A DNA stretch of 64,000 bases from an uncultured Verrucomicrobiota bacterium. Lineage in GTDB: Bacteria; Verrucomicrobiota; Kiritimatiellia; PWTM01. The stretch lies in NCBI GenBank assembly GCA_964386675.1, contig CAYLTB010000001.1, positions 2,353-66,352 of the forward strand, given 5' to 3'. Below are positions 5,126-45,237 of the stretch, piece by piece; the stretch's first letter is position 1; each line of letters begins with the position of its first letter. The notes below the pieces were generated by a model that saw only the letters and a list, made by a program, of their open reading frames with translations, was not told where the DNA came from and did no database searches. The translations under genes were made by a program, and so were the position numbers.

Positions 5126-6876
5126 TCGTCCCGATGAAACGGGTGACGGTGCTGTGTCTGGACTCGGCGCGCGAGGCGACCCTCGAACACCTCCGCGAGC
5201 TGGGGGTGCTCCACCTCGAACACGTCCGGCCCCCGGAGAACGATTCGGTGGAGGCGGCCCGCAAGGATCTGGCGTACTACCGGCGCGCCCTCGAGGTGCT
5301 TCCCGAGCGCTCCGCGGCCGCGCCGTCGGGCCGCCCGCCGCTGGAGATCGTCCGGGCCATCTGGGACTGCATCCATGAGCGCCAGAACCTGATGGAACGG
5401 CTGGAGACGCTGCGTCACGAACGGCAGCGCATCGCGCCGTTCGGCGACTTCGATCCCGCGGCTGCGCGCGCGCTGGCGGGCAAGGGGTTGAGCGTTCGAC
5501 TCTATCAGGTCGAGCCGAAGCAGGAACCCGTGGCGCCGCCCGGGACGGTGCTGCGGGTGCTGGGCCGGACCCGGGAGGCGACCTATTTCGCCGTCATCGG
5601 GCCGGCGGACGCGCCCGCACCGGCGGGCGCCGAAGTGCGGCTGCCGGAGATCGGGCTGGGAGAAATGGACCGGCGAATCGCCGAAGCGGAGTCGGCGCTG
5701 GAACGGAACCGGCTCGCGCTCGAGGTGTTTGCCGGCGACCGCGCCGCGGTGGCGGCGCAGGCCGCGGAGGCGGAAGATCGGATGGCGCTGCTGCAGGCGG
5801 CGGCCGGCATGGGCTCGGCGCAGCGTGTCGCCTGGTTGCAGGGGTATTGCCCCGAGGACAGCGCCGATTGTATCCGGCAGAGCGCCGCACAGGGCGGCTG
5901 GGGCGTGCTGATCGAGACGCCGAAGGACGGCGAGCCCGTTCCGACCCTGATCCGCAATCCGCGCTGGGTCCGGCCGATTCAGGCGATCTTCCGGCTGGTC
6001 GGCATTCTCCCGGGCTACCGCGAAATCGATATCAGCGCCGTGTTCCTGCTGTTCTTCAGCCTGTTCTTCGCCATGCTCGTCGGCGACGCGGGCTACGGCG
6101 TCCTGTTCCTCGGCCTGACCGTCTGGGCACGGAAGCGGAGGGGCGGCCGGCCGAATCCGGCAATCGCGCTGATGCTGATCATGAGCGTCTGTACGATCGT
6201 CTGGGGTATGCTGACCGGGACCTGGTTCGGCCTGACGTGGCGCCCCCTCGTGCCTTCGCTGACCCGAAACGAGACCGTGATGGGGCTGTGCTTCCTGATC
6301 GGCGCGGTGCAATTGAGCATCGCGCACGTCTGGAATATGGCGCGCCAGCGGCGCTCGCCGCAGGCGTTCGCGCAGCTCGGCTGGCTGGCCATCACGTGGG
6401 TGATGTATTTCGCGGCCAACGCGATGGTATTGAACCGGCCCTTTCCGCGCTTCATGCTGGGCGCGCTGGCGGGCGGGGTGCTGCTGATCGTGCTTTTCAT
6501 GACGCCGGTCAAACAGTTGAAGACCGAGTGGTTCAATCATGTGATGCTGCCGCTGAACCTCGTCAGCAGCTTCGTGGACATCGTTTCGTATATCCGCCTC
6601 TTTGCGGTGGGCACGGCGACCGTGTCGGTGGCGCAGGCCTTCAACAACATCGCGCTGGGCAGCGGCGGCCCGATCGGACTGGGCCGCGGAGTCGCGGCGG
6701 CGCTGATTCTTTTTGTCGGCCACGCCTTGAACCTCGTACTGGCCGGCATGGGCGTGATCGTCCACGGCGTGCGGCTGAACACGCTGGAGTTTTCGGGGCA
6801 CCTGGGGATGCAGTGGACCGGACTGCCCTACCGGCCGTTCGCGCGGGCGGCGGGCGCGTCCGAGGACAAGATATAG
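5122..6876 (+). CDS. atpI: V-type ATP synthase subunit I (a subunit)
   Basis: An ATGA overlap joins it to atpD. The N-terminal half is soluble and the C-terminal half is polytopic membrane protein (FFAMLVGDAGYG... multiple TM segments), as expected for subunit I/a. Confidence 0.85.
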   Translation: MIVPMKRVTVLCLDSAREATLEHLRELGVLHLEHVRPPENDSVEAARKDLAYYRRALEVLPERSAAAPSGRPPLEIVRAIWDCIHERQNLMERLETLRHERQRIAPFGDFDPAAARALAGKGLSVRLYQVEPKQEPVAPPGTVLRVLGRTREATYFAVIGPADAPAPAGAEVRLPEIGLGEMDRRIAEAESALERNRLALEVFAGDRAAVAAQAAEAEDRMALLQAAAGMGSAQRVAWLQGYCPEDSADCIRQSAAQGGWGVLIETPKDGEPVPTLIRNPRWVRPIQAIFRLVGILPGYREIDISAVFLLFFSLFFAMLVGDAGYGVLFLGLTVWARKRRGGRPNPAIALMLIMSVCTIVWGMLTGTWFGLTWRPLVPSLTRNETVMGLCFLIGAVQLSIAHVWNMARQRRSPQAFAQLGWLAITWVMYFAANAMVLNRPFPRFMLGALAGGVLLIVLFMTPVKQLKTEWFNHVMLPLNLVSSFVDIVSYIRLFAVGTATVSVAQAFNNIALGSGGPIGLGRGVAAALILFVGHALNLVLAGMGVIVHGVRLNTLEFSGHLGMQWTGLPYRPFARAAGASEDKI

Positions 6877-6921
6877 GATGTCGAACCGCGGAAAACGGAA
6901 CAGGTAAGGAGAAGATCGGAC

Positions 6922-7386
6922 ATGGATGCAACGGCAATGCAACTGTGGGGCCAATTTGGTGCGGCGGCGGCGCTGGGGCTTTCGGCGGCCGGCTCGGCGC
7001 TCGGCGCGGGTACGGCGGGCATGGCGGCCATCGGCGCGTGGAAGAAGTGTTACGCGCAGAGCAAGGCGGCGCCGTTCATTCTCGTCACCTTCATCGGCGC
7101 GCCGATGTCGCAGACGATCTACGGCTTCATCCTGATGAACAATATGCTCGGGAAGCTGGCCGCCGCCGGCGCGGAATCGCTGCCGAAAATCGGGCTCATG
7201 CTGGGGGCGGGGCTGCTGGGCGGACTCGGCATCGGCGTCTCCGCCTGGTTCCAGGGCAAGGCGGGCGCCGCAGGGGCCGATGCGCTGGCCGAGACCGGCC
7301 AGGGCTTCGGCAATTACCTCATGACGCTCGGCGTGGTCGAGACCGTCGCGCTGCTCGTGATGGTGTTCACGCTGATCAGCCTGTAG
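6922..7386 (+). CDS. atpK: V-type ATP synthase proteolipid subunit K/c
   Basis: A 154-aa, Gly/Ala-rich, four-helix proteolipid is encoded. A strong SD (AAGGAGAAG) lies 8 nt upstream of the ATG, and it is the last gene of the operon. Confidence 0.85.
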   Translation: MDATAMQLWGQFGAAAALGLSAAGSALGAGTAGMAAIGAWKKCYAQSKAAPFILVTFIGAPMSQTIYGFILMNNMLGKLAAAGAESLPKIGLMLGAGLLGGLGIGVSAWFQGKAGAAGADALAETGQGFGNYLMTLGVVETVALLVMVFTLISL

Positions 7387-7478
7387 GCCGCCGTTCACGG
7401 CCCGGCCAGCGCCGCGCCCGCGCGCGCCGGCGGGGGGACAGCGTCGGCGCTGTGCCGCCGCGGAAAACGCGGCCCGCG

Positions 7479-7508
7479 TTGGGAAGCGCCGCGGGTTGTG
7501 CTATAATC
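7479..7508 (+). promoter_or_regulatory. candidate sigma70-type promoter with extended -10
   Basis: TTGGGA (7479-7484), a 17-nt spacer, then TGcTATAAT (7499-7507). A consensus -10 with a TGn extension is rare in this GC-rich context. It lies 40 nt upstream of the ORF starting at 7547. Confidence 0.45.
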
Positions 7509-7546
7509 AAAGGCGCGGCGGGGCCCGCCGCGGCGGGGGTGCGGTC

Positions 7547-7993
7547 ATGCCCTTCGAGCAAACACGCGACATCCTGGAAAAGGCCCGCGGGTTTCACCGC
7601 GCTTTGGCCGCCTATTTCGAGCGGCTGGAGCAAATCGCGCCCAAAGAACGGGTGCGCATGGTCCTGGAATATCTGCGGCGTCACGAGCAGGCCATGGACG
7701 AGGAGCTGAAGTCCTTTGAGGCCCATGCCGCGCGGCCGGTGCTGGAATCCTGGTTCAAGTACGCGCCGGAGTCCGTGCAGGAGGCGATCCAGCGGCTCGA
7801 AATCCGCGCCGATATGACCGTCGAGGAAGTCGTGGACATCGCCCTGAAGCTGGACGAGCAGTTGCTGGCGCTCTACGGTCATGCCGCGCGCCTGGCGCCC
7901 GACGCCGCGGTGCGCGAGCTGTTCTCGAACTTGCATCGAGAGGGATTGCGCGAGCGCGCGCGGATTCTGCGCGCCGTGAACGAGCCGGACTGA
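7547..7993 (+). CDS. hypothetical protein
   Basis: A 148-aa ORF (MPFEQTRDILEKARGFHRALAAYFERLEQ...) with its own promoter. No family was recognised. The first ATG of ORF 7496..7993 lies inside the promoter, so 7547 is preferred. Confidence 0.5.
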   Translation: MPFEQTRDILEKARGFHRALAAYFERLEQIAPKERVRMVLEYLRRHEQAMDEELKSFEAHAARPVLESWFKYAPESVQEAIQRLEIRADMTVEEVVDIALKLDEQLLALYGHAARLAPDAAVRELFSNLHREGLRERARILRAVNEPD

Positions 7994-8045
7994 GACGGGC
8001 GTTCTGTCGAACCGAGCTGACACCCCGTGGGCGAGCGGCCCGCCC

Positions 8046-9365
8046 TCACGCCAGGCCGGCGCGCCGCAGTACCCGGCGGCGCTGCGCGCGGGCCTCGGCC
8101 CGCGTTCGCTCCTCGTCCAGGGTCGTCAGGCGGCCGTCCTCGAAAAGAATCCGTCCATCGCACAGGGTCAGGACGATGTCGGTGGCCCGGGCGGAATAAA
8201 CCAGCGTGACGGCGGGATCTTCCGAGGGCACGGCGTGGGCGCCGGAAAGATCGACCAAGATCAGGTCGGCGCGCTTGCCGGGGTCCAGCGTGCCGAGTTG
8301 GGCGTCCAGACCCAGCGCGCGGGCGCCGCCCTCGGTGGCCATCCGCACAATTTCACGTGCGGGCAGCGCGGAGGGGCCCAATCGCAGTTTCTGTACGAGC
8401 CCGGCCATCCGCATTTCCTCGAACATGTCCAACCGGTTGTTGCAGGCCGCACCGTCCGCGCCCATCGAGACGCACACGCCCATCGCCAGCAGTTCGGGGA
8501 TCGGCGCGATCCCGGAGCCCAGCTTGGCGTTGGCCGTGGGGCAGTGCAGCACGCGCGTTCCGGTTTCGGCCAGCAGACGCCGTTCGCCGTCGTCGAGGTG
8601 TACGCAATGCGCCAGGCAGGCCGTCGGCCCGGAGATGCCCACGGCGTGCAGGTAGTCCACGTTGCGCCGACCGGTGCGCTGTCGGACCCACTCGACCTCC
8701 GCGGTCTGTTCCGATGCATGCGTGTGCAGGATCAGCCGGCGATCGCGCGCGTAGGCGGACGCCTCGCGCAGACTCGCGGCGCTGCAACTGAGCGCGAACC
8801 TCGGCGCCACGGCGAGACCGAGCCGCGGATGGGCCTCCCACCGGCGCAGCAGCAGTTCACAATCGGCGAGCGAGTCCTCCACGGGCACGGCAAGCGGAGG
8901 GTAGCCGCCGGTCTCGTCCATCAGGCAATGGCCGATGAAACCGCGCAGTCCGGCCTCGGCGACGGCCTCGAACACGGCGCCGGTGTGGCGCACCGTTTCC
9001 ATGGAGAGAAACGTCGTCGTGCCGCCGCGGATCAGTTCAGCGCAGGCCAGGCGGGCGGAGGCGCGGATCGAATCCTCGTCATGGGCGGCTTCGAGCGGCC
9101 AGATGAAGCGGTTCAGCCACGGCAGCAGCGGTTCGTCCTCCGCCGCGCCGCGGAAGAGCGTCTGGCAGAGGTGCAGGTGCGTCTGCACGAACGCGGGCAT
9201 CAGCAGGGCGCCGTCCGCGTCGATGCGCACATCCGCGCGCGCGCGCAGGCGGCGGCCGGCCGCCGCGATGCGCCCGTCCTCCACCAGGACCCCGCTGTCG
9301 GGAATCGGCGGACGGTCCACGGCCGTCCACAGCAGCGCGTTGCGGATCAGGATGCGTTCGCCCAT
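8046..9365 (-). CDS. amidohydrolase family protein (MTA/SAH deaminase or chlorohydrolase-like)
   Basis: A 439-aa protein (MGERILIRNALLWTAVDRPP...) with metal-binding HxH near the N-terminus (AFVQTHLHLCQ) and an HTHASE motif. These are typical of the MtaD/guanine-deaminase amidohydrolase family. Confidence 0.75.
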   Translation of the reverse strand: MGERILIRNALLWTAVDRPPIPDSGVLVEDGRIAAAGRRLRARADVRIDADGALLMPAFVQTHLHLCQTLFRGAAEDEPLLPWLNRFIWPLEAAHDEDSIRASARLACAELIRGGTTTFLSMETVRHTGAVFEAVAEAGLRGFIGHCLMDETGGYPPLAVPVEDSLADCELLLRRWEAHPRLGLAVAPRFALSCSAASLREASAYARDRRLILHTHASEQTAEVEWVRQRTGRRNVDYLHAVGISGPTACLAHCVHLDDGERRLLAETGTRVLHCPTANAKLGSGIAPIPELLAMGVCVSMGADGAACNNRLDMFEEMRMAGLVQKLRLGPSALPAREIVRMATEGGARALGLDAQLGTLDPGKRADLILVDLSGAHAVPSEDPAVTLVYSARATDIVLTLCDGRILFEDGRLTTLDEERTRAEARAQRRRVLRRAGLA

Positions 9366-9390
9366 CAGAACCCGAGTCGCCGTCCGACGG

Positions 9391-9418
9391 TGGCAACACC
9401 CGTCGAACCGCGTATATT
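9391..9418 (+). promoter_or_regulatory. weak candidate promoter for ldhA
   Basis: TGGCAA (9391-9396), a 16-nt spacer, then TATATT (9413-9418), followed by an A-rich RBS region (AAAGAAAGAA) before the GTG at 9460. Confidence 0.2.
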
Positions 9419-9459
9419 GAATCTAGCGCAGCCGGACGCACAAAGAAAGAACGACCGCC

Positions 9460-10473
9460 GTGAATGCCGTCTCGATCGCCGTTTTCGACACCAAGCCTTA
9501 CGACCGGCAATTCCTCGAGGAGGCGAACGCGCGGTACGGGTTCGACCTGCGCTTTCTGCGGCCGCGGCTTGGGCGGGATACGGCGCGCCTGGCCGAAGGC
9601 GTTCCGGCGGTCTGCGCGTTCGTCAACGATGTGCTGGACGCCCCGACGGTCGAGACGCTGGCGACGGGGGGCACGCGCTTTGTGCTGCTGAGGTGCGCAG
9701 GCTACAACAACGTGGACCTATCCGCGGCCGCCGGTCGGTTGCGGATCGCGCGCGTGCCGGCCTACTCCCCCCACGCGGTGGCGGAGCATGCCGTCGCGTT
9801 GCTGTTGACGCTCAACCGCAAGATCCACAAGGCGTACGCGCGCACGCGCGACGGCAATTTTTCGCTGGCCGGCCTGCTCGGATTCGACTTGTTCGGCAAG
9901 ACCGCCGGTATCGTCGGCGCGGGCCGCATCGGCCGTGCGATGATCGGCATCCTGCGCGGTTTCGGCATGCAGGTGCTGGCGTACGATCCGTTTCCGGACG
10001 AAGATTTCGCACGCGTCTCCGGTTGCCGGTGGGCCGCGCTGGACGAACTGTTCCGCGCCTCCGACGTGATTTCGCTGCACTGCCCGCTGACGGCGGAGAC
10101 GCGGTATCTGATCCGCGCGGACACCATCGCGCGGATGAAGGACGGCGTCACGATCATCAACACCGGCCGCGGCGAGTTGATCCGTACCAGCGACTTGATC
10201 GAGGCGTTGAAGTCCCATAAGGTGGGGGCTGCCGGTCTGGACGTGTACGAGGAAGAGGAAGACATTTTCTTCGAGGACTGGTCTTCGGGCGGCATCGCGG
10301 ACGATGTCCTGGCGCGGCTGACGACGTTTCCGAACGTGGTGGTGACCGCACACCAGGCCTTCTTCACCGCGGAGGCGCTGCGCAACATCGCCGAGACCAC
10401 CCTCGAGAACGCTCGGCGGTTCTTCGAGGGCGCGCCGGTGCCCCATGAGATCTGCGGCCGGTGCACGGTCTGA
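9460..10473 (+). CDS. ldhA: D-lactate dehydrogenase (fermentative 2-hydroxyacid dehydrogenase)
   Basis: Near-colinear similarity to E. coli LdhA along the whole length. Matching segments include VFDTKPYD, CAGYNNVDL, VPAYSPHAVAEHA, NFSLAGLLGFDLFGKTAGIVG, SDVISLHCPLT, LDVYEEEEDIFFED and HQAFFTAEAL. The start codon is GTG. Confidence 0.92.
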   Translation: MNAVSIAVFDTKPYDRQFLEEANARYGFDLRFLRPRLGRDTARLAEGVPAVCAFVNDVLDAPTVETLATGGTRFVLLRCAGYNNVDLSAAAGRLRIARVPAYSPHAVAEHAVALLLTLNRKIHKAYARTRDGNFSLAGLLGFDLFGKTAGIVGAGRIGRAMIGILRGFGMQVLAYDPFPDEDFARVSGCRWAALDELFRASDVISLHCPLTAETRYLIRADTIARMKDGVTIINTGRGELIRTSDLIEALKSHKVGAAGLDVYEEEEDIFFEDWSSGGIADDVLARLTTFPNVVVTAHQAFFTAEALRNIAETTLENARRFFEGAPVPHEICGRCTV

Positions 10474-10529
10474 GCCGGGGCGGCGCATTGCGCTTGATGC
10501 GCGCGGACGGTTGAGCTATTCACGATTCC

Positions 10530-11096
10530 ATGCTTCGAGCCTGCTCCATCGCGGCGGCCGGAATGGCGCTGCTGTGCGGTTGCGCCGGATTCTGGGAGGA
10601 TCCCGGACGGATAGCGCAGCAGCAGCGCGAGGACGAACTGTTGCGCGAAGAGCGCGATCGCCGGCTCATGGGCCGCATCGAGACGCTGGAAATGGAAGCG
10701 GCGGCGTTGCGGCGCGATCTCGACCAGTCGCGGCGGGCGGCCGATACGGCGGGCCTGTCGCGCGTGCGCGCGCTGGAGGAGAAGATCGCGGCGCTGGAGC
10801 AGCGGTGGCGCGACAGCGAGGCCGCTCGCGAAAAAGACCGCCGGGAAATCGTCGAGGTTTTGAGCAAGCGCATGGCCGAGCTGCTGCAGTCCTCCGGCGC
10901 CGGCGGACGGACGGGCGTCCCGCCGCGGCGCGCGCCGAACCGCGCCGGCTGGGAGCATGAGGTCAAGCCCGGCGAGAGCCTGTCCACCATCGCGGCCGCC
11001 TATGGCGCGCGCGTCGCGGATATCGTCGAGGCCAATCAATTGCGGGACGCGCACATGATCCGCGTGGGGCAGAAGTTGTTCATTCCGGAACCGTGA
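10530..11096 (+). CDS. LysM-domain lipoprotein with coiled-coil region
   Basis: A lipoprotein signal with lipobox (MLRACSIAAAGMALLCGC) is followed by a charged coiled-coil segment. A C-terminal LysM domain is present (HEVKPGESLSTIAAAYGARVADIVEANQL...GQKLFIP). Confidence 0.7.
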   Translation: MLRACSIAAAGMALLCGCAGFWEDPGRIAQQQREDELLREERDRRLMGRIETLEMEAAALRRDLDQSRRAADTAGLSRVRALEEKIAALEQRWRDSEAAREKDRREIVEVLSKRMAELLQSSGAGGRTGVPPRRAPNRAGWEHEVKPGESLSTIAAAYGARVADIVEANQLRDAHMIRVGQKLFIPEP

Positions 11097-12223
11097 CGGC
11101 GGACGCACGGGCACATCGCGTGAGCTGGTTTCTTCAAAAAAGCAACGGCGTCGAATACGGGCCGACCGACCTGGAAACGCTTCGCGCGTGGGCGGCGGAC
11201 GGGCGTATCGCGGCGGACGATCTGATCAGCCGGGATCGCGCAACATGGACGCCGGCGTCGAAGGAAGTGCTGCTCGAGATCGAATGGGTCGTCACCACCG
11301 ATCAGGGCGATGCCGGCGGACCCTGTCACCTGCGGCTGTTTTCCGAATGGCTGCGGGAGGGCGTCCTGTCGCCGGATACGGTTGTTCGCAACGTGCGCAA
11401 TGGTCGGCGCGTCGTCTTGGGCGAATTGTTTCCCGACCTGGTCGCGACCTTGACGGCGGCGAGCGCCGGGCCTTCGTCGGTTTCGGTCCCCGCCGCTGCG
11501 TCCGAGACCGGAACCGAGGGATGGGCGGCGTCCGTCGCCGCGGCGGAGCCGTCCGCCGATGGAATTGCAGGACCGCCGGAACGGATCATCTGGCAGGCGC
11601 TGGCACGTGAACGGGACGCCCTTCTGGATGAGGCGCGCAAGTGGCATGAGCGCCATGACCGGGAATGGGAGGCGGCGCGGAAACGCGAGGAGGAGTTGAC
11701 GGCCCGGTTGCGGCAGACGGAGCAGGAACTGATCCGTCTGCAATCGGCGCTGGAGGGGGCGCAGCAGGAAATCCAGGGGTATCGCCGCGAGCGCGAGGAA
11801 GTCGCCGAACAGGGCCCCTCGCGCGACTGGGCGGCGGCCTACTTTGCGCTCGCCCGGACGCACGACACGCTGACCGCCGAGCTCGAGCAGAAAATGCGCG
11901 AGTTGCAGACGCTGCGCGAGGAAGTGGTCGCCGTCAACGCGGCGGCCGAGGAACGGGCACGCCTGGCCGACGCGCAGGTCGCCACCGAACGCCGCGCGGC
12001 GGACGAAGCCCGCCGCGCGTTGGCCGAGTCCGAGCAGGCGCATGAGGCGGTGCTGCGCTCGCTCCGCGAGCTGAACGACCGGTACATCCGCCTGCGGGAA
12101 CGGTATGCCGCTGTGATCGCGCCGGGTAATTCCCCGGCGCCCGCGCCGTCCCCGCCGGGCACGGCGTCGCCGGGCGCTGACGCCGCGCCCGCCCCGGGGC
12201 CGCGAATCCGATTGTTGCGCTGA
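11093..12223 (+). CDS. DUF4339 (GYF-like) domain coiled-coil protein
   Basis: The GTG start overlaps the upstream stop (GTGA). The N-terminus WFLQKSNGVEYGPTDLETLRAWAADGRIAADDLI matches the DUF4339 signature. The remainder is a long Glu/Arg-rich coiled coil with a Pro-rich tail. Confidence 0.6.
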   Translation: MTADARAHRVSWFLQKSNGVEYGPTDLETLRAWAADGRIAADDLISRDRATWTPASKEVLLEIEWVVTTDQGDAGGPCHLRLFSEWLREGVLSPDTVVRNVRNGRRVVLGELFPDLVATLTAASAGPSSVSVPAAASETGTEGWAASVAAAEPSADGIAGPPERIIWQALARERDALLDEARKWHERHDREWEAARKREEELTARLRQTEQELIRLQSALEGAQQEIQGYRREREEVAEQGPSRDWAAAYFALARTHDTLTAELEQKMRELQTLREEVVAVNAAAEERARLADAQVATERRAADEARRALAESEQAHEAVLRSLRELNDRYIRLRERYAAVIAPGNSPAPAPSPPGTASPGADAAPAPGPRIRLLR

Positions 12224-38634: not shown

Positions 38635-40137
38635 CTAGCCGGGTTGGTCCAGCGCTTCGCGCACCGCCCTTCCGAGTTCATCGGAGGCGAGCGGCTTGCG
38701 CAGGTAACGCGCGACGCCTTCATCCAGCGCCTCGGTCACGCGCGCGGTTTCGACGAAACCGCCGACCAGCAGTGCCTTTTGCCGCGGGTTGGCGGCGCGC
38801 GCGCGGCGGAAGGTATCGACGCCGTCGAGCGCGTCGCCGAGCACCAGGTCAATGACCATCAGGTCCGCCGGCGGCTCCCCCTTGCGCGCGCGCTCCTCCG
38901 CCCACGCCAGGGCCGCCTGCCCGCTCTCGGCGACGCTCACGGTATAACCGAGCTGCTCGAGCATTCGGCGCGCTTCGTTGCGCGGCGCCTCCCCGTCGTC
39001 CACCACCAGAATATGCTCGCCGCCGCGCGCGCGCAGCGCCGGTTCCGCGGCTGCTTCGCCGGCGGCGACCGGCAGGAACAGCGCCAGCTCCAGTCGGCGG
39101 CCATCGCTCAAGGATCGCGCTTCGGCAAAGCCGCCGCAGCGTTCGGCGAACGCGTCCAGGTGGGCCAGTTCGAATCCGGAAACGGTGCGCCAGCCCAGCG
39201 TGCGTTCCGCGTAGTACGGTTCGAAGATCCGGTCCGCATCCTCCGGCTCGACCGACGCGCCAAACTGCGCTCCGAACACCGTGTAGTGCCGTTCGTCTTC
39301 CGCGCGGGCGGCGATGCGCTCGACCCGGGTACACAGCAGCACGGACGGTTCGTTGGACACGCGCACCGCCAGTTCGATCAGGCGCGCCAGAAATTCAGCG
39401 CCCGAAACGGGGCAACCGGTCGCCGGCGGCAGAGGATTGCCGAGGCGTTTCTCGATGCGGGTACCGGGGTGGCGATCGCGCAGCGCGGCATAACGCTCGG
39501 ATTCCAGGTACCGCTCGACGGCGCGGTTCAGGTCCCAGGGCGCGGTCGGCGGCGCGGATGCCGTGTGCAGCGCGGCCACGCGCTCGGCAAGCTCGCGCAG
39601 CGGCGACAGTGCCGCCGGCAACGGAGAGGAAAGAATGGCGTGCAGGTCGGCGGAAAGGCCCGCGGCGAAGCCCGCGATGGCGGCGCGCCGCTCCCGGCGG
39701 ACGGCGTGGCGGTCGCGCTCGTGGCGCTGCGCCTGCGCGCGGGTCCGTTCCCGCACCAGACGCCGGCGCAGGTCGCGCGCGTCGAGAACGAGCCGGATGC
39801 GGTGCGCGATCTCCTCCGGCCGGGCGGGCTTCAAAATGTAGTCGGCCGCGCCGTTGCGCATCGCTTCGACCGCGTTGGCCGGCGTTCCGTGGCCGGTCAG
39901 CACCACGATCGGCAGGTCCGGCATGCGGGCGGTCACGCGCCGGATCAGTTCCAGACCGTCCACGCCGTCCATGACCATGTCGGTGAGCACGAGGTCCGCG
40001 CCCTCCCGCGCCAGACAGGCGAGCGCCTCGTCGCCGCTGGCGGCGGTCGAGACCCGATACCCGTCGCGCTCGAGATTGACCGCCAGGCCGCTGCGCACGA
40101 TCTCGTCGTCATCCACGACCAGCACATGATGGCTCAT
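38635..40137 (-). CDS. hybrid response regulator: REC - degenerate HisKA/HATPase-like region - REC
   Basis: The N-terminal receiver is HVLVVDDDEIVRSGL...LVLTDMVMDGVDGLELIRRV...VLTGHG. The C-terminal receiver is HILVVDDGEAPRNE...VIDLVLGDALDG...KPL. The middle region has H-box-like and N/F-box-like motifs (IFEPYYAE) but poorly conserved G-boxes. An ATGA overlap joins it to the upstream kinase. Confidence 0.75.
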   Translation of the reverse strand: MSHHVLVVDDDEIVRSGLAVNLERDGYRVSTAASGDEALACLAREGADLVLTDMVMDGVDGLELIRRVTARMPDLPIVVLTGHGTPANAVEAMRNGAADYILKPARPEEIAHRIRLVLDARDLRRRLVRERTRAQAQRHERDRHAVRRERRAAIAGFAAGLSADLHAILSSPLPAALSPLRELAERVAALHTASAPPTAPWDLNRAVERYLESERYAALRDRHPGTRIEKRLGNPLPPATGCPVSGAEFLARLIELAVRVSNEPSVLLCTRVERIAARAEDERHYTVFGAQFGASVEPEDADRIFEPYYAERTLGWRTVSGFELAHLDAFAERCGGFAEARSLSDGRRLELALFLPVAAGEAAAEPALRARGGEHILVVDDGEAPRNEARRMLEQLGYTVSVAESGQAALAWAEERARKGEPPADLMVIDLVLGDALDGVDTFRRARAANPRQKALLVGGFVETARVTEALDEGVARYLRKPLASDELGRAVREALDQPG

Positions 40138-42155
40138 GCCGCGCCCTCCGCAACCGGCAGCCGCACGGTGAACGTCGCGCCGCGGCCGATCTCGCTTTCG
40201 ACCGTGATGTCCCCGCCCCGGGCGCGCACGAGCGCGTCCGTGATGCTCAACCCCAGTCCGGTTCCGCGGGCGCCCTTCGTGGTGAAGAAGGGCGTAAACA
40301 GCCGGGCGCGGACTTCCGGCGCGATGCCGACGCCCGTATCGCGGACTTCGATCCGCGCGCGCCCGTTCTCGCGGTCGCAGACGATGTGCAATTCGCCGCC
40401 GTCGGGCATGGCGTCCCGGGCGTTCATCATCAGGTTCATCAACACCTGCGCCAACTCGCCGGGCGCGATCCGCAGCTCGACGTCTTGCGAGCGCAGTTCC
40501 ACCCGCAGACGGACGCCGGACTTCTCGAGGGCGGAATGCAGCATCTCGCGGACGAAGGCGAGCGCCTCGCTGACGCGGCACGTGGGCCGCGTGTCGTCGG
40601 GCGCGGCGCCCAACCAGAGCAGGCGCTGCACCAGGCCGCGGATCGTTTCGATGCCGCGTTCAACCATCGCGAGGCTGGCGCGGCGCGGGTGGTCGGCGGG
40701 CAGCGCCTCACGCACGGCCGCCAGGTGACTGAGCATGCCCTGCAGCGGGTTGTTGACCTCGTGCGCGACGCCCGCGGCCAGCAGGCCGAGCGAGGCCAGC
40801 CGGTTGGCGCGTTCCAGCGCGGCCCGCTCGCGCGCCTCCGCCGTCTCGCGTTCCAGCCGGATGCGCTCCTCGACGGCGCGCCGGCGTTCGGTGATGTCCT
40901 TGACCAGGCCGTCGTATCCGACCAGCCGCCCCTGGGCGTCGCGGCGCGGCGCCGGCGTGTTGCGGACCCAGCGGACCTGGCCGTCCTTTCGGACGATCCG
41001 ATGGTCGAGGGGGGCCGCCTCGGCGCCGGCCAGAATGGCCTGCGCGTGCGCCAGCACCGCCGGACGGTCTTCCTCCGGCACCATGGTCAGCCAGAGGAAC
41101 GGATTGGCGGCGAAGTCCTCGGCGCGGTAGCCGGTCACCGCCTCGCAGCCCGGTCCGTGTTGGGTTGCGACCGGCCGGCCTTCGCTGACCTCGACGGTGT
41201 ACACATAGTCGGTCACGGTGGCGAGCAACCGACGGTACCGCTGTTCGCTCTCCCGCAACGCCAGTTCCGCGAGCTTTCTTTCCGTGATATCGGAGATCAT
41301 CGCGATCTTCGACAACCGTCCGTCCGGATGGCGGATCGGCGAATTGACGACGTAGTACCAACGCCGGTCGAGCGGGCTCTGCACTTCCCAGCGCACCGTT
41401 TCGCCGGCGAACACGCGGTCGTTGACGCACCAGGGGCAGATCTCTTCCCGTCCGTGCAGGACACGGTGACAGGGTTCCCCGACGGCGTTGCGGCCGGTGC
41501 GTTCGATCAGCCGCGCGTTCATGAATTCGACGCGGTAGTCCTGCGAACAAATGTAGATCAGCCCGTCATACGCCTCGACGATGGCCTGGTAGCGCGCCGC
41601 CGTTTCCCGCCATTGCTCTTCGACGCGTCGCCGCTGGGCGACCTCTTCTTCCAACTGGGCATTCGCGGCCTGCAAGGCCGCCGTGCGGTCTTCCACGCGC
41701 CGTTCGAGGCCGGCGCGGTACTCGGCCAGCCGGGCTTCGGCCTCGCGCCGCTCGGTGACGTCGAGAACAAAGCCCTGAAAGTGCGTCGGGCGTCCGTCCG
41801 CTCCGCGCGCGATGATGCCGTTTTCCTCGACCCAGCGGGTCCGGCCGTCCGGGCACTGCAGGCGGTAATCCAGCGCGTATTCAGTTGCGCCCGCGGCAAC
41901 GCGCGCGTCCAGGTTGCGTTCGACCCGGTGGCGGTCTTCCGGCACGATGAATTCCTCGTACAGCGCGCCCCGCGCCATCAGGGCCTCGGGGTCGAGACCC
42001 CAGCGGCGCGCGTTCTCGGAGACGTATCGGATCGGCCAACCGGGCCCGGCGTCCCAGCGGAACACGACCGCGGGGCTGCCCTCGATGACGGCGCGCCATT
42101 CGCGCAGCCGTTCCGCGTCGCGCTGCCCGGCGATTTCCTGACCGGTCGGTTCCAT
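40134..42155 (-). CDS. cytoplasmic multi-PAS sensor histidine kinase
   Basis: About three PAS/PAC modules are followed by HisKA (LAAGVAHEVNNPLQGMLSHLAAV) and HATPase_c (LMNLMMNARDAM...DTGVGIAPE...GTGLGLSI). No TM segments are present. The start MEPTGQ at 42155 lies 11 nt downstream of the preceding stop. The ORF extends to 42197. Confidence 0.8.
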   Translation of the reverse strand: MEPTGQEIAGQRDAERLREWRAVIEGSPAVVFRWDAGPGWPIRYVSENARRWGLDPEALMARGALYEEFIVPEDRHRVERNLDARVAAGATEYALDYRLQCPDGRTRWVEENGIIARGADGRPTHFQGFVLDVTERREAEARLAEYRAGLERRVEDRTAALQAANAQLEEEVAQRRRVEEQWRETAARYQAIVEAYDGLIYICSQDYRVEFMNARLIERTGRNAVGEPCHRVLHGREEICPWCVNDRVFAGETVRWEVQSPLDRRWYYVVNSPIRHPDGRLSKIAMISDITERKLAELALRESEQRYRRLLATVTDYVYTVEVSEGRPVATQHGPGCEAVTGYRAEDFAANPFLWLTMVPEEDRPAVLAHAQAILAGAEAAPLDHRIVRKDGQVRWVRNTPAPRRDAQGRLVGYDGLVKDITERRRAVEERIRLERETAEARERAALERANRLASLGLLAAGVAHEVNNPLQGMLSHLAAVREALPADHPRRASLAMVERGIETIRGLVQRLLWLGAAPDDTRPTCRVSEALAFVREMLHSALEKSGVRLRVELRSQDVELRIAPGELAQVLMNLMMNARDAMPDGGELHIVCDRENGRARIEVRDTGVGIAPEVRARLFTPFFTTKGARGTGLGLSITDALVRARGGDITVESEIGRGATFTVRLPVAEGAA

Positions 42156-42166
42156 GAACGTTCCGT

Positions 42167-44596
42167 CTAGGCCCCCCGGAACTTCTCGTAGGGCCACATA
42201 GCCACGCCGCCCTCCATCACTTTGACCCGCGGGAAGCCGGCCGCCCGCAGGATCAGCGCGGCTTCGTAGCCGCGGATCGAAAGCGCGCAGAACGTCACGA
42301 TCTCGCGGTCGCGCGGCAGTTCCCCGAGCCGTCCGCGCAGCGCGCCCAGCGGGATCGAGCGGGCGCCCGGCAGCCGGGTCTGCTCGTATTCCAGCGGCGT
42401 GCTGACGTCCAGCAAGACGAAATCGTCCTTGCGCTGGATCCGCTCCCAGACCTCGGTGGGCGTAACGCCGTCGAGCAGTCCGTCCAGCTTGTTGCGCGCC
42501 ACATTGGCCGCCGTAATCAGGTTGTCCATCGCCGGCGAATACGGCGGCGCATAGCCGAGATCAAGCGCCGCGATCTGGTCCACCGTGAAGCCGGCCGTGA
42601 TCGCCGTCGCCGCCACATCCACCCGCTTGTCGCCCTGCCCGGGACCGATCGCCTGCGCGCCCAGCAGCCGTCGCGACCGTCGGTCCGCGACCAGCTTGAG
42701 CATCAGCAGCCGCGCTTCCGGCAGGAAGTGCTCGCGGTCGGGCCCCGGCACCAGCACGCTGACCGGATCGAAGTCTGCCGCGCGCGCCTCGGTCTCGCTG
42801 AGGCCGGTGCGGGCCGCGCAATAGTCGTACACGTTGCAGATCGTCGTGCCCAGCACGCCGGGGAAGAGGTCGTTTCCGCCGCACAGGTTGATCGCGGCGA
42901 CGCGGCCCTGCTTGTTCGCCGTCGAGCCCAGCGGAATGTAGCAGGGCTGTCCGGTGAGCCGGTGGACGGACTCGACGCAGTCGCCCACCGCGTAAATATC
43001 GGGGTCCGACGTGCACATCCGGGCGTCCGTGCGGATGGCGCCGGTGGGGCCGAGGTCGAGACCTGCGGCCGCCGCCAGCGCGGTCTCCGGCCGCACGCCG
43101 GCGCTCAGGATCACCAGGTCCGTCGGGATCTCGCCGCCGTTCGTCTCGACCGCGGCGACGGCGCCGTCGCCCCGGAAGCCGCGGACCTCGACCCCCGTGC
43201 GCACGCGCACGCCGTTGGCCTCCATGTGCCGTTCGATCAATAATGCCATCTCCGGGTCGAACATCTGTAGAATCTGCGGCAGGCGCTCGACGATCGTGAC
43301 ACGGCAACCCCGCAGCGTCAGCGCCCGGGTCATCTCGACGGCGATCAGTCCGCCGCCGACGAGCACGACGTCGCGGGCGCGGTGCTCGGCCAGCGCGTTA
43401 CGGATGCCTTCGGCGTCGCGAACGCCGTGCAACGTAAATATGTTGCGCAGCCCCACGCCCGGCAGATTCGGGATCACCGGCCGCGCGCCCGTCGCCAGCA
43501 CGAGCTTGTCGTACGGGAGCCACTGCTCCGCGCCGTCCTCGAGCCGCCGCACACGCACGCGCCGCTGCGCGCGGTCGATCTCGACGGCCTCCGTGCGGTT
43601 CAGCGTCCGGACGTTCTTGACGTTCTGGAAGAAGATCGGGTCCCGCACCACGCCGAGCGGCGTCGAGAGCAACTGCTTCTGATCGGCGACCACACCGGCA
43701 ACGTAGAACGGCAGCCCGCACCCGGCGTACGACAGCAGGTCGCCGCGCTCGACGATCGTCACCTCGGTCTCCGCCCGCAGTCGGTTGACCTTCGCGGCGA
43801 CTTTCGGGCCCGCGGCGACGCCGCCGATGATCACCACGCGGGGCCTTCGCCGGCCTTCGGCGTCCAGCGCCTCCCGCTCCGCCGCGGGGACGGCCGCCAG
43901 CTCGATGCGGAACGCCGCTCCGCCCAGCGGAGAGGCCGCCACGGAAATGCGGCCGCCCGCCGATTCCACCACCGCCTTCACGAACGCCAGGCCCAGGCCG
44001 ACGCCGGGCCGCGCCGATCGGCGCGCCTCGACGCTGCGGTAGAACGGCTCAAATATCTTCGCGCGCTGTTCCTCCGGCACGCCGATACCGGAGTCCTCCA
44101 CGGTCAGCGCCACCGTTTCCGCGGACGGCGCCTCGACGCCGATCCGGATCCGGCCATGGTCGGGCGTGTACTTGATCGCGTTCGACAACAGCGCATGCAA
44201 CGCCTCGGTCAGGCCCTCCGCCCCGATTCGCGCCCATGCGGGTTCCGCGCGGATCGCGTAGTCCAGCGCGATGCCGCGCCGCGCCGCTTCCTCGGTGAAC
44301 GATTGACCCGCGCGCCGCGCCTCCGCCGCCGCGTCCGCCGCGCCTTCCTCGCCCGCGCGCGGACGGACGATCATCAGCATTCGGCGCACGCTTTCGATGG
44401 CTTCCTCGATGCGGCGGTCCGCCTTCGCCAACAGGTCCTTCTGGCGGGGGGTGAGCTGCCCGGCGTACTCTCCGAGCAGCGTTTTGACAATGGAACCGGC
44501 CGCCGCGACCGGCGCTTTGAGCTGGTGCGCAACGTGGCCGGCGAATTGCAGAGGGTCGTCGGTATTCCGGGATTTCGGGTCGGATGCGGACGTCAT
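42167..44596 (-). CDS. histidine kinase fused to CoA-disulfide reductase/NADH oxidase-like FAD oxidoreductase and rhodanese domain
   Basis: A single 810-aa ORF. Residues ~1-290 are HisKA+HATPase_c (H-box FAGHVAHQLKAPV; N-box LLSNAIKYT; G1 VEDSGIGVPEE; F IFEPFYR; G2 GVGLGLAFV) with no N-terminal sensor or TM. Residues ~300-700 are a pyridine-nucleotide-disulfide oxidoreductase with the CoADR/Nox active-site context VVIIGGVAAGPKVAAK...SYAGCGLPFYVAG. The last ~100 aa are a rhodanese domain with catalytic Cys loop (VTFCALSIRGY). Confidence 0.75.
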   Translation of the reverse strand: MTSASDPKSRNTDDPLQFAGHVAHQLKAPVAAAGSIVKTLLGEYAGQLTPRQKDLLAKADRRIEEAIESVRRMLMIVRPRAGEEGAADAAAEARRAGQSFTEEAARRGIALDYAIRAEPAWARIGAEGLTEALHALLSNAIKYTPDHGRIRIGVEAPSAETVALTVEDSGIGVPEEQRAKIFEPFYRSVEARRSARPGVGLGLAFVKAVVESAGGRISVAASPLGGAAFRIELAAVPAAEREALDAEGRRRPRVVIIGGVAAGPKVAAKVNRLRAETEVTIVERGDLLSYAGCGLPFYVAGVVADQKQLLSTPLGVVRDPIFFQNVKNVRTLNRTEAVEIDRAQRRVRVRRLEDGAEQWLPYDKLVLATGARPVIPNLPGVGLRNIFTLHGVRDAEGIRNALAEHRARDVVLVGGGLIAVEMTRALTLRGCRVTIVERLPQILQMFDPEMALLIERHMEANGVRVRTGVEVRGFRGDGAVAAVETNGGEIPTDLVILSAGVRPETALAAAAGLDLGPTGAIRTDARMCTSDPDIYAVGDCVESVHRLTGQPCYIPLGSTANKQGRVAAINLCGGNDLFPGVLGTTICNVYDYCAARTGLSETEARAADFDPVSVLVPGPDREHFLPEARLLMLKLVADRRSRRLLGAQAIGPGQGDKRVDVAATAITAGFTVDQIAALDLGYAPPYSPAMDNLITAANVARNKLDGLLDGVTPTEVWERIQRKDDFVLLDVSTPLEYEQTRLPGARSIPLGALRGRLGELPRDREIVTFCALSIRGYEAALILRAAGFPRVKVMEGGVAMWPYEKFRGA

Positions 44597-44604
44597 GCCG
44601 CGGA

Positions 44605-45237
44605 TTATACCGCCGGTCCGGTGCGCGGCAACGGCGATTCCGGGCGCTGCGCCGCGCGCCAGTCCACCGGCGTGTCGAGGTCGAACCGCGCGCCCTCGTC
44701 GTCGCAGGGAACCTCCGCCACGCGGCCGACCGGCGCGGCGGCGAGCACGCCGCGCAATCCGTCCGGCGGGTCCGCGCCGCGGAGCAAGACCGGCCGCCAT
44801 TCCGCCGCCAGCAGCGGCGGATGCCCGCGGCGTCCAGCGACTCGCGGATGCGCCACGGCCACACCGGGCGTCAGCGCGGCGATCAGGCGGCGCAGGGTCT
44901 CCGATCGTACGAAGGGGATGTCCGCCGGGTGCACGAAGAAACCATCCAGATCCGCGGGCAGCGCCGCCACGCCCGTCCGCACCGAGGAAAACATCCCGCG
45001 CGACGGGTCGGGATTGACGACGGCCGGAACGCGCAATCCCGCCAGCCGCCGGATCAATTCGTCCGCGCCGGGCGCGACCACCACGCGGGGCTCGGCGACG
45101 CCCGCGGCGCGAAAGGTTTCGACCAACCGCTCGATGAGCGTTCGGCCGTCTATTTCCAACAGCGGCTTACAAGCGCCCATGCGCCGCCCGGCGCCCGCGG
45201 CCAGGATCACCGCGCCGATCATCGGAGCCGAAGGCAT
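44605..45237 (-). CDS. MobA-like NTP transferase (molybdenum cofactor nucleotidyltransferase family)
   Basis: MIGAVILAAGAGRRMGACKPLLEIDGRTLIERLV is the MobA/MocA glycine-rich nucleotide-binding N-terminus. The gene is 210 aa and lies 8 nt upstream of the HK-fusion gene. Confidence 0.7.
   Translation of the reverse strand: MPSAPMIGAVILAAGAGRRMGACKPLLEIDGRTLIERLVETFRAAGVAEPRVVVAPGADELIRRLAGLRVPAVVNPDPSRGMFSSVRTGVAALPADLDGFFVHPADIPFVRSETLRRLIAALTPGVAVAHPRVAGRRGHPPLLAAEWRPVLLRGADPPDGLRGVLAAAPVGRVAEVPCDDEGARFDLDTPVDWRAAQRPESPLPRTGPAV

Follow-up and report, generated by a model that had tools for sequence, protein, structure and literature searches.

A histidine kinase core joined in frame to a whole NADH-dependent persulfide reductase: a candidate redox sensor conserved in many anaerobes

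The window, that is, the whole 64-kb stretch of DNA that was analysed, carries on its minus strand an open reading frame (42167..44596) that starts with an ATG at 44596, has a stop codon ending at 42167 and encodes a protein of 809 aa. This protein joins a HisKA/HATPase kinase core to an NADH-dependent persulfide reductase (Npsr), in the order DHp hairpin, ATP-binding domain, 17-residue linker, FAD/NADH disulfide reductase, dimerisation domain and rhodanese. A longer frame of 877 aa, opening with an ATG at 44800, was ruled out, as the added part, rich in Arg and Gly, overlaps the upstream gene out of frame; the start at 44596 was preferred because the homologues begin at the equivalent position. 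A sigma-70-like promoter (TTGCCG, 16 nt, TATAAT; 44604..44631, minus strand; 2 sites found against 0.3 expected) precedes the gene. Its -10 hexamer ends only 7 nt before the ATG, and the mRNA is therefore predicted to be leaderless or nearly so. A Pfam search for domains identified no TM, PAS or GAF domain in the 809 residues, and the frame opens, as an earlier note on this DNA had claimed, at the H-box of the DHp domain (His24) with no N-terminal sensor. The order of kinase, reductase and rhodanese given in the same note agrees with the Pfam matches, and the homologues have the same Pfam set.

In the window, the fusion gene is the first of an operon composed solely of signalling proteins. Its downstream partner (40134..42197, minus strand) encodes a 3xPAS-HisKA-HATPase kinase with a canonical H-E..N H-box; the longest frame for this kinase overlaps the stop of the fusion gene, and the JGI gene call begins at 42155. 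The third gene (38635..40146, minus strand) encodes a protein in which two receiver (REC) domains flank a degenerate HATPase-like middle. This REC-pseudoHK-REC protein, the sole receiver protein in the 64 kb, is a candidate phospho-partner. No hydrogenase, Rex or sulfur genes were found in the window.

Errors in metagenome contigs are frequent enough in general for a lost stop or a frameshift to have joined two genes here, but nothing specific to this contig points that way, and such an artefact is extremely improbable. A protein identical to that of the window was called on JGI contig Ga0116238_10000852, the spacing at the junction is constant, and orthologues encoded by the same single ORF (at 93%, 84%, 82%, 78% and 75% identity, besides over 100 others) come from independent JGI, ENA, NCBI and Logan assemblies. 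Altogether, the in-frame fusion was found in at least 120 protein clusters and in 54 non-redundant loci from independent assemblies, and all 120 homologues listed are of about 806-813 aa. The frameshift or missing stop that the earlier note had named as fatal to its reading was thus not borne out, and on these sequence comparisons we consider it confirmed that the kinase-Npsr fusion is genuine and conserved in many anaerobes. The carriers are PVC-superphylum and Desulfobacterota MAGs; among the carrier groups are Phycisphaerae, Kiritimatiellia, Lentisphaerae and Desulfobacterota from digesters and sediments. The searchable literature yielded no published description of a histidine kinase-Npsr fusion. 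In an NJ distance tree, fused and free Npsr are intermingled, with free enzymes nesting among the fused ones; monophyly of the fused modules is thus unsupported, an NJ tree on its own being weak evidence.

Judged by its sequence, the enzyme half belongs to the Npsr type of NADH persulfide reductases. The FAD- and NADH-binding domains (residues 253-548; 42953..43840, minus strand) were identified by alignment and as a Pyr_redox_2 match of 227 bits, with a Pyr_redox match at residues 410-486, and are followed by the Pfam-defined pyridine-nucleotide disulfide oxidoreductase dimerisation domain (Pyr_redox_dim, residues 589-692; 42521..42832, minus strand) and by the rhodanese domain (Pfam and alignment, residues 712-801; 42194..42463, minus strand). 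The redox Cys293 (codon 43718-43720) sits in SYAGCGLPFYVAG, where it had been placed before. The other reductase motifs are GGVAAG (258-263), an STPLGVVRD loop of the AfNpsr type (311-319), GGGLIAVE (414-421) and GDC (538-540), and Glu437 is the acid that predicts a preference for NADH. Cys293 is present in 47 of 47 fused and 23 of 23 free proteins, the NADH site is invariant, and GGVAAG, GGGLIxxE, E437 and GD539 do not vary in the family alignment, Cys293, Glu437 and the FAD and NAD glycines being kept by 34 of 34 members; the loss of FAD/NAD motifs on closer alignment, also named beforehand as a possible refutation, was thus not observed.

The nearest solved relative of residues 253-801 is A. 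fulgidus Npsr (AfNpsr, 6PFZ; E 1e-146), with Cys293 aligning with the region of its active-site Cys. The same residues align end to end with Shewanella loihica Npsr (3NTA), B. anthracis CoADR-RHD (3ICR) and CoA-persulfide reductase (8A56), at E values that range over the four from 1e-146 to 1e-98. All share the single SxxxC redox Cys, the FAD and NADH folds, the dimerisation domain and the C-terminal rhodanese Cys loop, whereas the fusion alone has a histidine-kinase core of 250 residues at its N-terminus. The scores fall short of the NCBIfam CoADR equivalogs TIGR03385 (391.5 vs 578.8 bits) and NF007123 (356.8 vs 458). Because of these cut-offs, and because 6PFZ is the best relative, we use the name Npsr rather than CoADR: in the former description of a CoADR/Nox with a rhodanese, reductase and rhodanese hold good, but the CoADR label does not. 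AfNpsr (6PFZ), which is specific for NADH, is a reductase of per- and polysulfide and also acts as an NADH oxidase. The full-length alignment with it, together with a lid loop of the same type (TTYGAVR in AfNpsr, STPLGVVR in the fusion), suggests that the fusion protein also would bind CoA tightly and have NADH:per-/polysulfide reductase activity.

The rhodanese active-site loop, also noted earlier, reads F-C770-A-L-S-I-R775-G (Cys770 codon at 42287-42289). Ser or Gly takes the place of the rhodanese Cys in 11 of the 47 fused proteins (23%), which belong to several separate clades, as opposed to none of the 23 free Npsr (p = 0.012), and in the fused loops the Lys and Arg neighbouring the active Cys are likewise relaxed. 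Since relaxation of the rhodanese Cys is confined to fused proteins and Cys293 is relaxed in none, the flavin/Cys293 centre appears to be the essential part. This pattern bears on one possible function, that of a dedicated sensor of persulfide, polysulfide or CoA-persulfide in which the rhodanese Cys would capture sulfane sulfur and hand it to Cys293/FAD, gating a normally active autokinase. The window protein does retain Cys770, Arg775 and Cys293, and the characterised Npsr enzymes prefer per- and polysulfide, with the rhodanese Cys as the proposed site of sulfur entry. The probable source, an anaerobic digester, would also suit such a sensor (P0039, a protein of a Lentisphaerae ADurb bin, is found in a sister JGI sample), and the hydrogenase neighbours described below are compatible with a switch between S0 and H+ as electron sink. 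However, the rhodanese Cys is dispensable in those 11 fused proteins, genes for sulfur oxidation, persulfide dioxygenase, TusA/DsrE or polysulfide reductase do not recur beside the fused genes, and the Gln that follows the phospho-acceptor speaks against an ordinary autokinase. The persulfide-gated kinase proposed in the earlier note has thus lost ground, and we now think it unlikely.

In the kinase half, the DHp hairpin (residues 15-77; 44366..44554, minus strand) was delimited by Pfam, alignment and AlphaFold, which predicts helices at 15-41 and 50-77, and the catalytic ATP-binding domain (residues 89-235; 43892..44332, minus strand) by Pfam and alignment. HATPase_c matches residues 127-234 with 89.7 bits, whereas HisKA (residues 17-82), at 24.5 bits, is slightly below its cut-off of 26.9. 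The AlphaFold model of the fusion protein is of a monomer. The H-box is A-H24-Q25-L-K-A28-P29 (His24-Gln25 codons at 44522-44527). Across 34 aligned family members the phospho-acceptor His24 is always kept, as are E131 and N139 (N box), D168xGxG172 (G1), F182/F185 (F box) and G198xGxG202 (G2), although the sequences are as little as 56% identical overall. The nearest solved kinase is 5C93 (residues 13-246, E 1e-18), and the DHp hairpin, the Pro at H+5 of the H-box and the N, G1, F and G2 boxes are those of class I HisKA kinases (PhoR/WalK/HK853-like). Unlike these, the fusion has no N-terminal sensor, TM or HAMP, and its sole extra module is C-terminal.

It further departs from class I kinases at H+1 and H+4. 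At H+1, where HisKA autophosphorylation calls for an acid, Gln (Gln25) is found in 34 of 34 members of the fusion family, against Glu or Asp in 71 of 71 other HisKA kinases. At H+4, where Thr or Asn is expected for phosphatase activity and is present in 61 of the 71 other kinases, the window protein has Ala28; the family has Ser in 26 members, Gly in 4, Ala in 3 and Thr in 1 (n = 34). Within the N box, N-4, usually Asn, is Ala or Ser in the family (Ala in the window protein), and N-8 is the invariant Glu131. The exchange of Glu for Gln at H+1 in CrdS (E372Q) abolished autophosphorylation and left phosphatase activity (PMC3510030), and a kinase-negative phenotype, without in vitro biochemistry, has been reported for NtrB E140Q. 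Because Gln is found at H+1 family-wide and CrdS E372Q lacks autophosphorylation, the kinase competence assumed earlier is weakened, and the Ala at H+4 in this protein tells against it as well. The phosphoryl chemistry of the family may be atypical, that is, slow, dependent on another base (e.g. Glu131), or biased away from autokinase activity.

These departures would also fit a protein that is no sensor, with Npsr as a plain enzyme and the kinase-like half in some other role: as a scaffold of the pseudokinase or phosphatase-only kind, as a tether by which the enzyme is co-localised or co-expressed with a signalling complex, or as the part that regulates the enzyme instead of being regulated by it. 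The fused Npsr halves are indeed indistinguishable from the free enzymes, sharing up to 87% identity with free Npsr genes, and a comparison of fused with free proteins found no Npsr position conserved only in the former, hence no hint that a docking surface has evolved. Stand-alone HQ-type kinase cores of 239 aa also exist, P0122 being one without an adjoining Npsr. As to split pairs, in which an HQ-kinase gene would lie beside a free Npsr gene, no remnants of the kinase module were found in 25 unfused loci. On the other hand, the invariance of His24 and of all ATP-binding motifs would be unexpected for a dead kinase, and the linker between the two halves likewise argues for more than an enzyme with an appendage. 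This linker (residues 236-252; 43841..43891, minus strand) is variable in sequence and conserved in length, the distance between the G2 box and the FAD motif being 53-59 residues in all 48 loci measured; AlphaFold predicts a short helix at residues 238-248.

The linker region is also where the earlier note had seen an internal ribosome-binding site. The GAAGG (43844-43848) followed after 6 nt by GTG (Val254, 43835-43837) is present as quoted, but in the window itself it does not exceed what chance would give, since SD-like matches of at least 4 nt, such as its AAGG, occur at 33% of random in-frame positions. The window's lineage is also without a Met at the ancestral Npsr start position. In about one third of the fusion family, an SD (GGAG, exactly 8 nt upstream) and the ancestral Npsr ATG are kept within the linker, a signal that emerged only on examining the Met at -6. 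It is therefore plausible that members of the family express the reductase separately as well, which for this gene is only conjectural, and the retained start would suggest, in keeping with the plain-enzyme account, that the gene also serves as an enzyme gene.

Gene neighbourhoods were compared for 54 fused and 25 unfused loci, neighbours being identified by phmmer with seed proteins against six-frame ORFs. A receiver is encoded no more than 5 kb away from 17 of the 54 fused genes but from only 1 of the 25 unfused ones (p = 0.008); 37 fused loci have no receiver within that distance, and the neighbourhoods are heterogeneous. In 10 loci a receiver of 124-133 aa with a shared D-x-M-M-E signature directly adjoins the fusion. 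The enrichment of receivers beside fused and not beside free Npsr genes, and the purely signalling operon of the window, run counter to the plain-enzyme account, which we consider rather unlikely. Rex directly adjoins 6 of the 54 fused genes, in lineages of 32-66% GC, and none of the 25 unfused ones. The Rex operator (TTGTGAAN4TTCACAA, up to 3 mismatches) was found upstream of fused genes in 1 of 52 loci, which is the background density, so that there is no sign that Rex controls the fusion gene itself. About 12 loci have genes for NuoF/NuoE/HydA-type hydrogenase or formate dehydrogenase, Hyp genes, or a group-4 NiFe cluster.

The explanation that we favour, tentatively and at a little short of an even chance, is that the fusion is a cytoplasmic, presumably dimeric trigger-enzyme redox sensor that would weigh NADH against sulfane sulfur or O2. 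As residues 1-250 contain neither a Cys nor any domain beyond the kinase core, the input can be sought only in the Npsr half. A HisKA-type core without N-terminal input is tethered by a linker of constant length to an Npsr, predicted to be catalytically intact, that would carry FAD, the rhodanese and a Cys293 probably bearing CoA. The redox poise of flavin and Cys293 would be set by NADH as the reductant and by per-/polysulfide or O2 as the oxidant, and might alter the hold of the Npsr dimer on, or its contact with, the CA/DHp core, thereby switching the flow of phosphoryl groups. In other lineages this flow would go to the small stand-alone receiver and, in the window, to the REC-pseudoHK-REC protein, which would be shared with the co-transcribed 3xPAS kinase. 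Judging from the neighbours, the usual output might be the control of NADH-reoxidising enzymes that produce H2 or formate. One might thus speculate that the cell picks protons or sulfur as its electron sink.

There are precedents for parts of this scheme. In PutA, NifL, MmoS and Aer, a regulatory output is derived from how far a bound flavin is reduced, and PutA is a complete flavoenzyme doubling as a regulator, with DNA or membrane binding as its output. The fusion resembles these sensors and trigger enzymes in concept, the flavin redox state being the putative signal. Unlike the kinase-linked sensors of the MmoS/NifL type, with their small N-terminal PAS-FAD, it has a whole disulfide reductase with two dinucleotide folds and a rhodanese C-terminal to the kinase, no PAS match, and a stretch of 23 residues ahead of the H-box. 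Among the known sensors, those for sulfane sulfur act as one-component thiol-switch regulators and those for NADH, Rex for instance, as repressors, and flavin-based kinases rely on small PAS domains. Reactive sulfur species, a possible signal for the fusion, are sensed by CstR, SqrR, BigR and FisR, which are dithiol one-component regulators, and B. licheniformis NreB, a sulfide-sensing kinase with a [2Fe-2S] PAS, provides a precedent for a histidine kinase able to report sulfide (PMC9918477, PMC13478379). None of these has a flavoprotein reductase, whereas the fusion has one, without an accompanying sulfur-detoxification operon.

Put together, the fusion could be the first two-component kinase with a complete flavoprotein disulfide reductase as its trigger-enzyme input, reporting NADH versus sulfane sulfur (or O2) and controlling the metabolism of hydrogen and formate in anaerobes of the PVC group and in Desulfobacterota. 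The role of general base would have passed from H+1 to Glu131, on the N-box helix, and in about one third of the lineages one mRNA would yield both the fusion and a free Npsr. That all of this holds jointly is rather improbable. The fusion protein is predicted to be soluble and to carry chromophoric cofactors, and should be amenable to study in vitro. If our reading is true, a kinase with a whole NADH-persulfide reductase as its input would represent a way of sensing that is new among two-component systems, and would give a direct handle on the choice that fermentative and sulfur-cycling anaerobes make between H2, formate and sulfur as electron dump. The presence of Gln at H+1 throughout the family provides a natural experiment on how HisKA kinases achieve catalysis, and the conserved internal SD and ATG are a clear example of a fusion gene from which the ancestral enzyme may still be expressed.

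On the minus strand, from the ATG at 44596 to the end of the stop codon at 42167, the window encodes an 809-residue protein in which a histidine kinase core runs into an oxidoreductase and a rhodanese domain, and kinase and oxidoreductase do share one true ORF, as the earlier note had held. JGI contig Ga0116238_10000852 has a gene call for exactly this protein, and the same domain order was found elsewhere by a search of 5.8 billion proteins: at least 120 homologous clusters of approximately 806-813 residues match 97-100% of the query length at 56-93% identity, and all the clusters listed share HATPase_c, Pyr_redox_2 and Rhodanese. Scanning genomes and metagenomes yielded 54 non-redundant loci with the fusion (<90% identity) and 25 with the free enzyme gene, which lacks the kinase half. 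In the 48 measurable fused genes, 175-180 residues separate the H-box from G2, and 53-59 separate G2 from the FAD motif. Given this constant spacing and the same fusion elsewhere, sequence comparison, within its limits, excludes a frameshift artefact. The fusion occurs in MAGs assigned to Phycisphaerae, Planctomycetes, Lentisphaerae, Kiritimatiellia, Verrucomicrobiota, Desulfobacteraceae and Thermodesulfobacteriota, and the source databases give it unspecific names ("FAD-dependent oxidoreductase", "NADH peroxidase", "sulfur reductase-like enzyme/rhodanese"). Full-text literature searches found no description of the architecture, and no NCBIfam model names the family, which is widespread, uncharacterised and built of two well-known modules.

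Pfam places HisKA at residues 17-82 with a score slightly below threshold (24.5 bits; cut-off 26.9), and also matches HATPase_c (127-234), Pyr_redox_2 (253-548), Pyr_redox (410-486), Pyr_redox_dim (589-692) and Rhodanese (712-801). The absence of an N-terminal sensor holds, as the Pfam and sequence check gave no TM, PAS, GAF or HAMP segment and just 23 residues precede the H-box; residues 1-250 contain no cysteine. The AlphaFold model (input alignment of 34 sequences; mean pLDDT 84.5, pTM 0.68) predicts a DHp hairpin of helices 15-41 and 50-77, a CA domain at 89-235, a short linker helix at 238-248 and the first strand of the reductase fold at residue 253. The sequence details first reported are all correct, with Cys293 in SYAGCGLPFYVAG and Cys770 in FCALSIRG. 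A near-consensus sigma-70-like promoter (TTGCCG-16 nt-TATAAT, 44604-44631, minus strand) ends 7 nt before the ATG, and no Shine-Dalgarno-like site precedes this ATG. The promoter position suggests that the mRNA may be leaderless and is in favour of 44596 being the true start. The promoter stands in surroundings of 70% GC, within the 3' end of the upstream gene (44605-45237, minus strand), which encodes a MobA-like/DVU_1551-family NTP transferase and ends 8 nt before the fusion ATG. This neighbour is not kept even in the 93%-identical relative (locus L085).

The closest solved relative of the enzyme half is the NADH-dependent persulfide reductase (Npsr) of Archaeoglobus fulgidus (6PFZ, E 1e-146, residues 253-801 against 2-550), followed by the Bacillus anthracis CoADR-RHD and the Shewanella Npsr. 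The archaeal enzyme is NADH-specific and also has NADH oxidase activity; its substrates are polysulfide and the persulfides of cysteine, glutathione and CoA, whereas disulfides are not reduced, and a tightly bound CoA sits beneath its TTYGAVR lid loop (PMC7969121). In the window protein the corresponding loop is the homologous STPLGVVRD, with G315, R318 and D319 invariant. Contrary to the name CoADR first given to this half, the fusion does not reach the NCBIfam CoADR equivalog cut-offs, and we therefore label it Npsr-type. On closer alignment its FAD and NAD motifs are intact: the glycines of both are kept in every protein compared (47/47 fused, 23/23 free), as are Cys293, GDC538-540 and Glu437, the acidic residue from which a preference for NADH is predicted. 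Free Npsr is 62-67% identical to the window module and up to 86-87% identical to certain other fused modules, as for the free genes of L145 (245-1927) against the fused module of L101, and of L157 (7986-9668) against that of L137. Neither of these two free genes has a kinase remnant upstream. Such likeness indicates recent or recurrent fusion or fission, or paralogous pairs of enzyme and sensor. Fused and free Npsr interleave in a distance tree and no Npsr position was found to be conserved in fused proteins only, so the module looks like an unmodified enzyme.

The rhodanese domain behaves differently from the flavin centre. Its catalytic cysteine is replaced by Ser or Gly in 11 of the 47 fused proteins, in several clades, and in none of the 23 free enzymes (p = 0.012), whereas the flavin-proximal cysteine is never lost. 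The lysine following the rhodanese cysteine, present in all 23 free enzymes, is relaxed in fused proteins, as is Arg775 of the same loop. This suggests that the essential part of the putative sensory module is the NADH/FAD/Cys293 centre and not the rhodanese sulfur-entry site. The narrower model of the earlier note, a persulfide sensor, is consistent with the window protein, which keeps its rhodanese cysteine (Cys770), but it is disfavoured by these family data and we consider it quite unlikely.

In the kinase half, His24, Pro29, Glu131, Asn139, D168xGxG172, F182/F185 and G198xGxG202 are invariant in the family. The residue after the phosphorylatable histidine (H+1) is Gln in 34/34 members (Gln25 in the window) against Glu in 67/71 and Asp in 4/71 of the nearest other HisKA kinases, and H+4, Ala28 in the window, is Thr/Asn in 61/71 of these. 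In the characterised kinase CrdS, E372Q (also A, D, G) abolishes autophosphorylation with full phosphatase activity kept, and phosphatase activity is lost in N375A; NtrB E140Q behaves as kinase-negative but phosphatase-competent, a phenotype described without in vitro biochemistry (PMC3510030). Relative to the N-box Asn139, N-4 is Ala in the window (residue 135, codon 44192-44194) and Asn in 63/86 other kinases, while N-8 is an invariant Glu (residue 131, codon 44204-44206), a position at which 47/86 of the others have Gln and 9/86 have Glu. These deviations may reflect a slow kinase, a general base relocated to Glu131 or a non-autokinase role; one might speculate that Glu131, Ala at N-4 and Gln at H+1 together mark such a relocated base. 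A non-sensor role, with the kinase half as pseudokinase or phosphatase scaffold or the fusion as a co-expression tether, is a somewhat unlikely reading that still deserves weight, given Gln25 and an enzyme module that looks unmodified; that the histidine and all the ATP-binding motifs are invariant speaks against a dead kinase domain. Stand-alone cores of the same type (238-239 residues, no sensor or Npsr) also occur in clusters P0122 (L172, 466-1185, next to a prepilin peptidase gene), P0125, P0129 and P0148, with an AHQ H-box, or AHH in P0148.

The possible internal start noted previously, GAAGG 6 nt before a GTG (Val254, 43835-43837), is present but unremarkable, since an SD-like match of at least 4 nt occurs at 33% of random in-frame positions; the linker of the window lineage contains no Met. 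Elsewhere, 19 of 48 fused members have a Met at -6 relative to VVIIGG, within M-x-x-P-[ML]-[KR]-VVIIGG, the exact N-terminus of free Npsr (L101, L103, L104, L106-L109, L111, L112, L114, L117, L118, L120, L128, L129, L134, L138, L139 and L143). In 17/19 this Met has a GGAG/GAGG core at a distance of exactly 8 nt on its upstream side, compared with 66/855 (7.7%) other in-frame ATGs (p = 3.6e-13), and the core is kept at the nucleotide level although the encoded residues differ (G-D, G-E, G-A, G-V, Q-E-D). Free Npsr genes carry the same AAGGAG-8 nt-ATG. Judging from these sequences, the fusion evidently originated when a kinase gene came to be read through into the 5' region of Npsr, and in about one third of the fused family, a claim that does not extend to the window gene, internal initiation probably continues to supply free Npsr.

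In the window and in its 93% and 75% relatives the fusion heads a signalling-only operon, followed by a 3xPAS kinase with a canonical H-E..N box (40134-42197, minus strand) and a REC-degenerate HATPase-REC protein (38635-40146, minus strand), the only receiver protein in the 64 kb. The latter is a pseudo-kinase between two receivers, with the F-box IFEPYY kept and G1 DxGxG lost. The neighbourhoods of the 54 fused loci vary but are not random. A receiver lies within 1.5 kb in 12/54 fused and 1/25 unfused loci, and within 5 kb in 17/54 and 1/25 (p = 0.008). Ten fused loci have a directly adjacent single-domain receiver of 124-133 residues (L097 2727-3161, L098 10527-10922, L112 2355-2738, L124 10565-10939, L138 10607-11002; also L103, L113, L125, L132, L133), forming two related groups that share a D-x-M-M-E...K-P signature, with an unusual D-x-M-M-E following the phospho-Asp and a (Q/E)KP(V/I)(D) C-terminus; these are candidate cognate partners of the fused kinases. 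A gene for a Rex-family NADH/NAD+ repressor (Put_DNA-bind_N + CoA_binding) is the direct neighbour of 6/54 fused and 0/25 unfused genes; in these six lineages, of 32 to 66% GC, it lies at most about 1.3 kb away, and in five it shares the strand of the fused gene (L112 5706-6326, L117 3049-3669, L124 6021-6662, L129 804-1592, L134 2-460, L137 10680-11552). No enrichment of a Rex operator was seen upstream of the fused gene. NuoF/NuoE/HydA-type NADH-linked [FeFe] hydrogenase or formate dehydrogenase genes accompany L087, L098, L109 and L124 (L099 and L002 match the NuoF seed more weakly, at E 1e-5 to 1e-6), HypABE genes L090 and L129, a Rex-Fer4_22-FAD/NAD-group-4 NiFe cluster L112 and L117, and AsrB-like genes further fused loci. 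Downstream of the L112 fusion (5706-11801, including Rex) are genes for Fer4_22, an FAD/NAD-binding protein, a ferredoxin and NuoH-, NuoB-, NuoC-like and NuoD/NiFe large-subunit proteins, which look like a group-4 energy-converting hydrogenase-like complex. NADH- or H2-related neighbours amount to approximately 15/54 fused against 1/25 unfused loci (p = 0.016), and no recurrent sulfur-oxidation or persulfide-detoxification gene was found at fused loci.

The best-supported reading, which we put forward tentatively, is that the fusion acts as a redox sensor of the trigger-enzyme kind. In it the Npsr half would stay an enzyme, and its redox poise, NADH against sulfane sulfur or O2, would be the sole input available to the sensor-less kinase core. 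The output would go to small receivers, and in the window to the REC-X-REC protein shared with the PAS kinase, and would often be tied to hydrogenases and formate dehydrogenases that reoxidise NADH. The known sulfur sensors comprise one-component regulators and NreB, a PAS kinase of the Fe-S type (PMC9918477, PMC13478379). The present family should interest those who study two-component signalling and the redox physiology of anaerobes.
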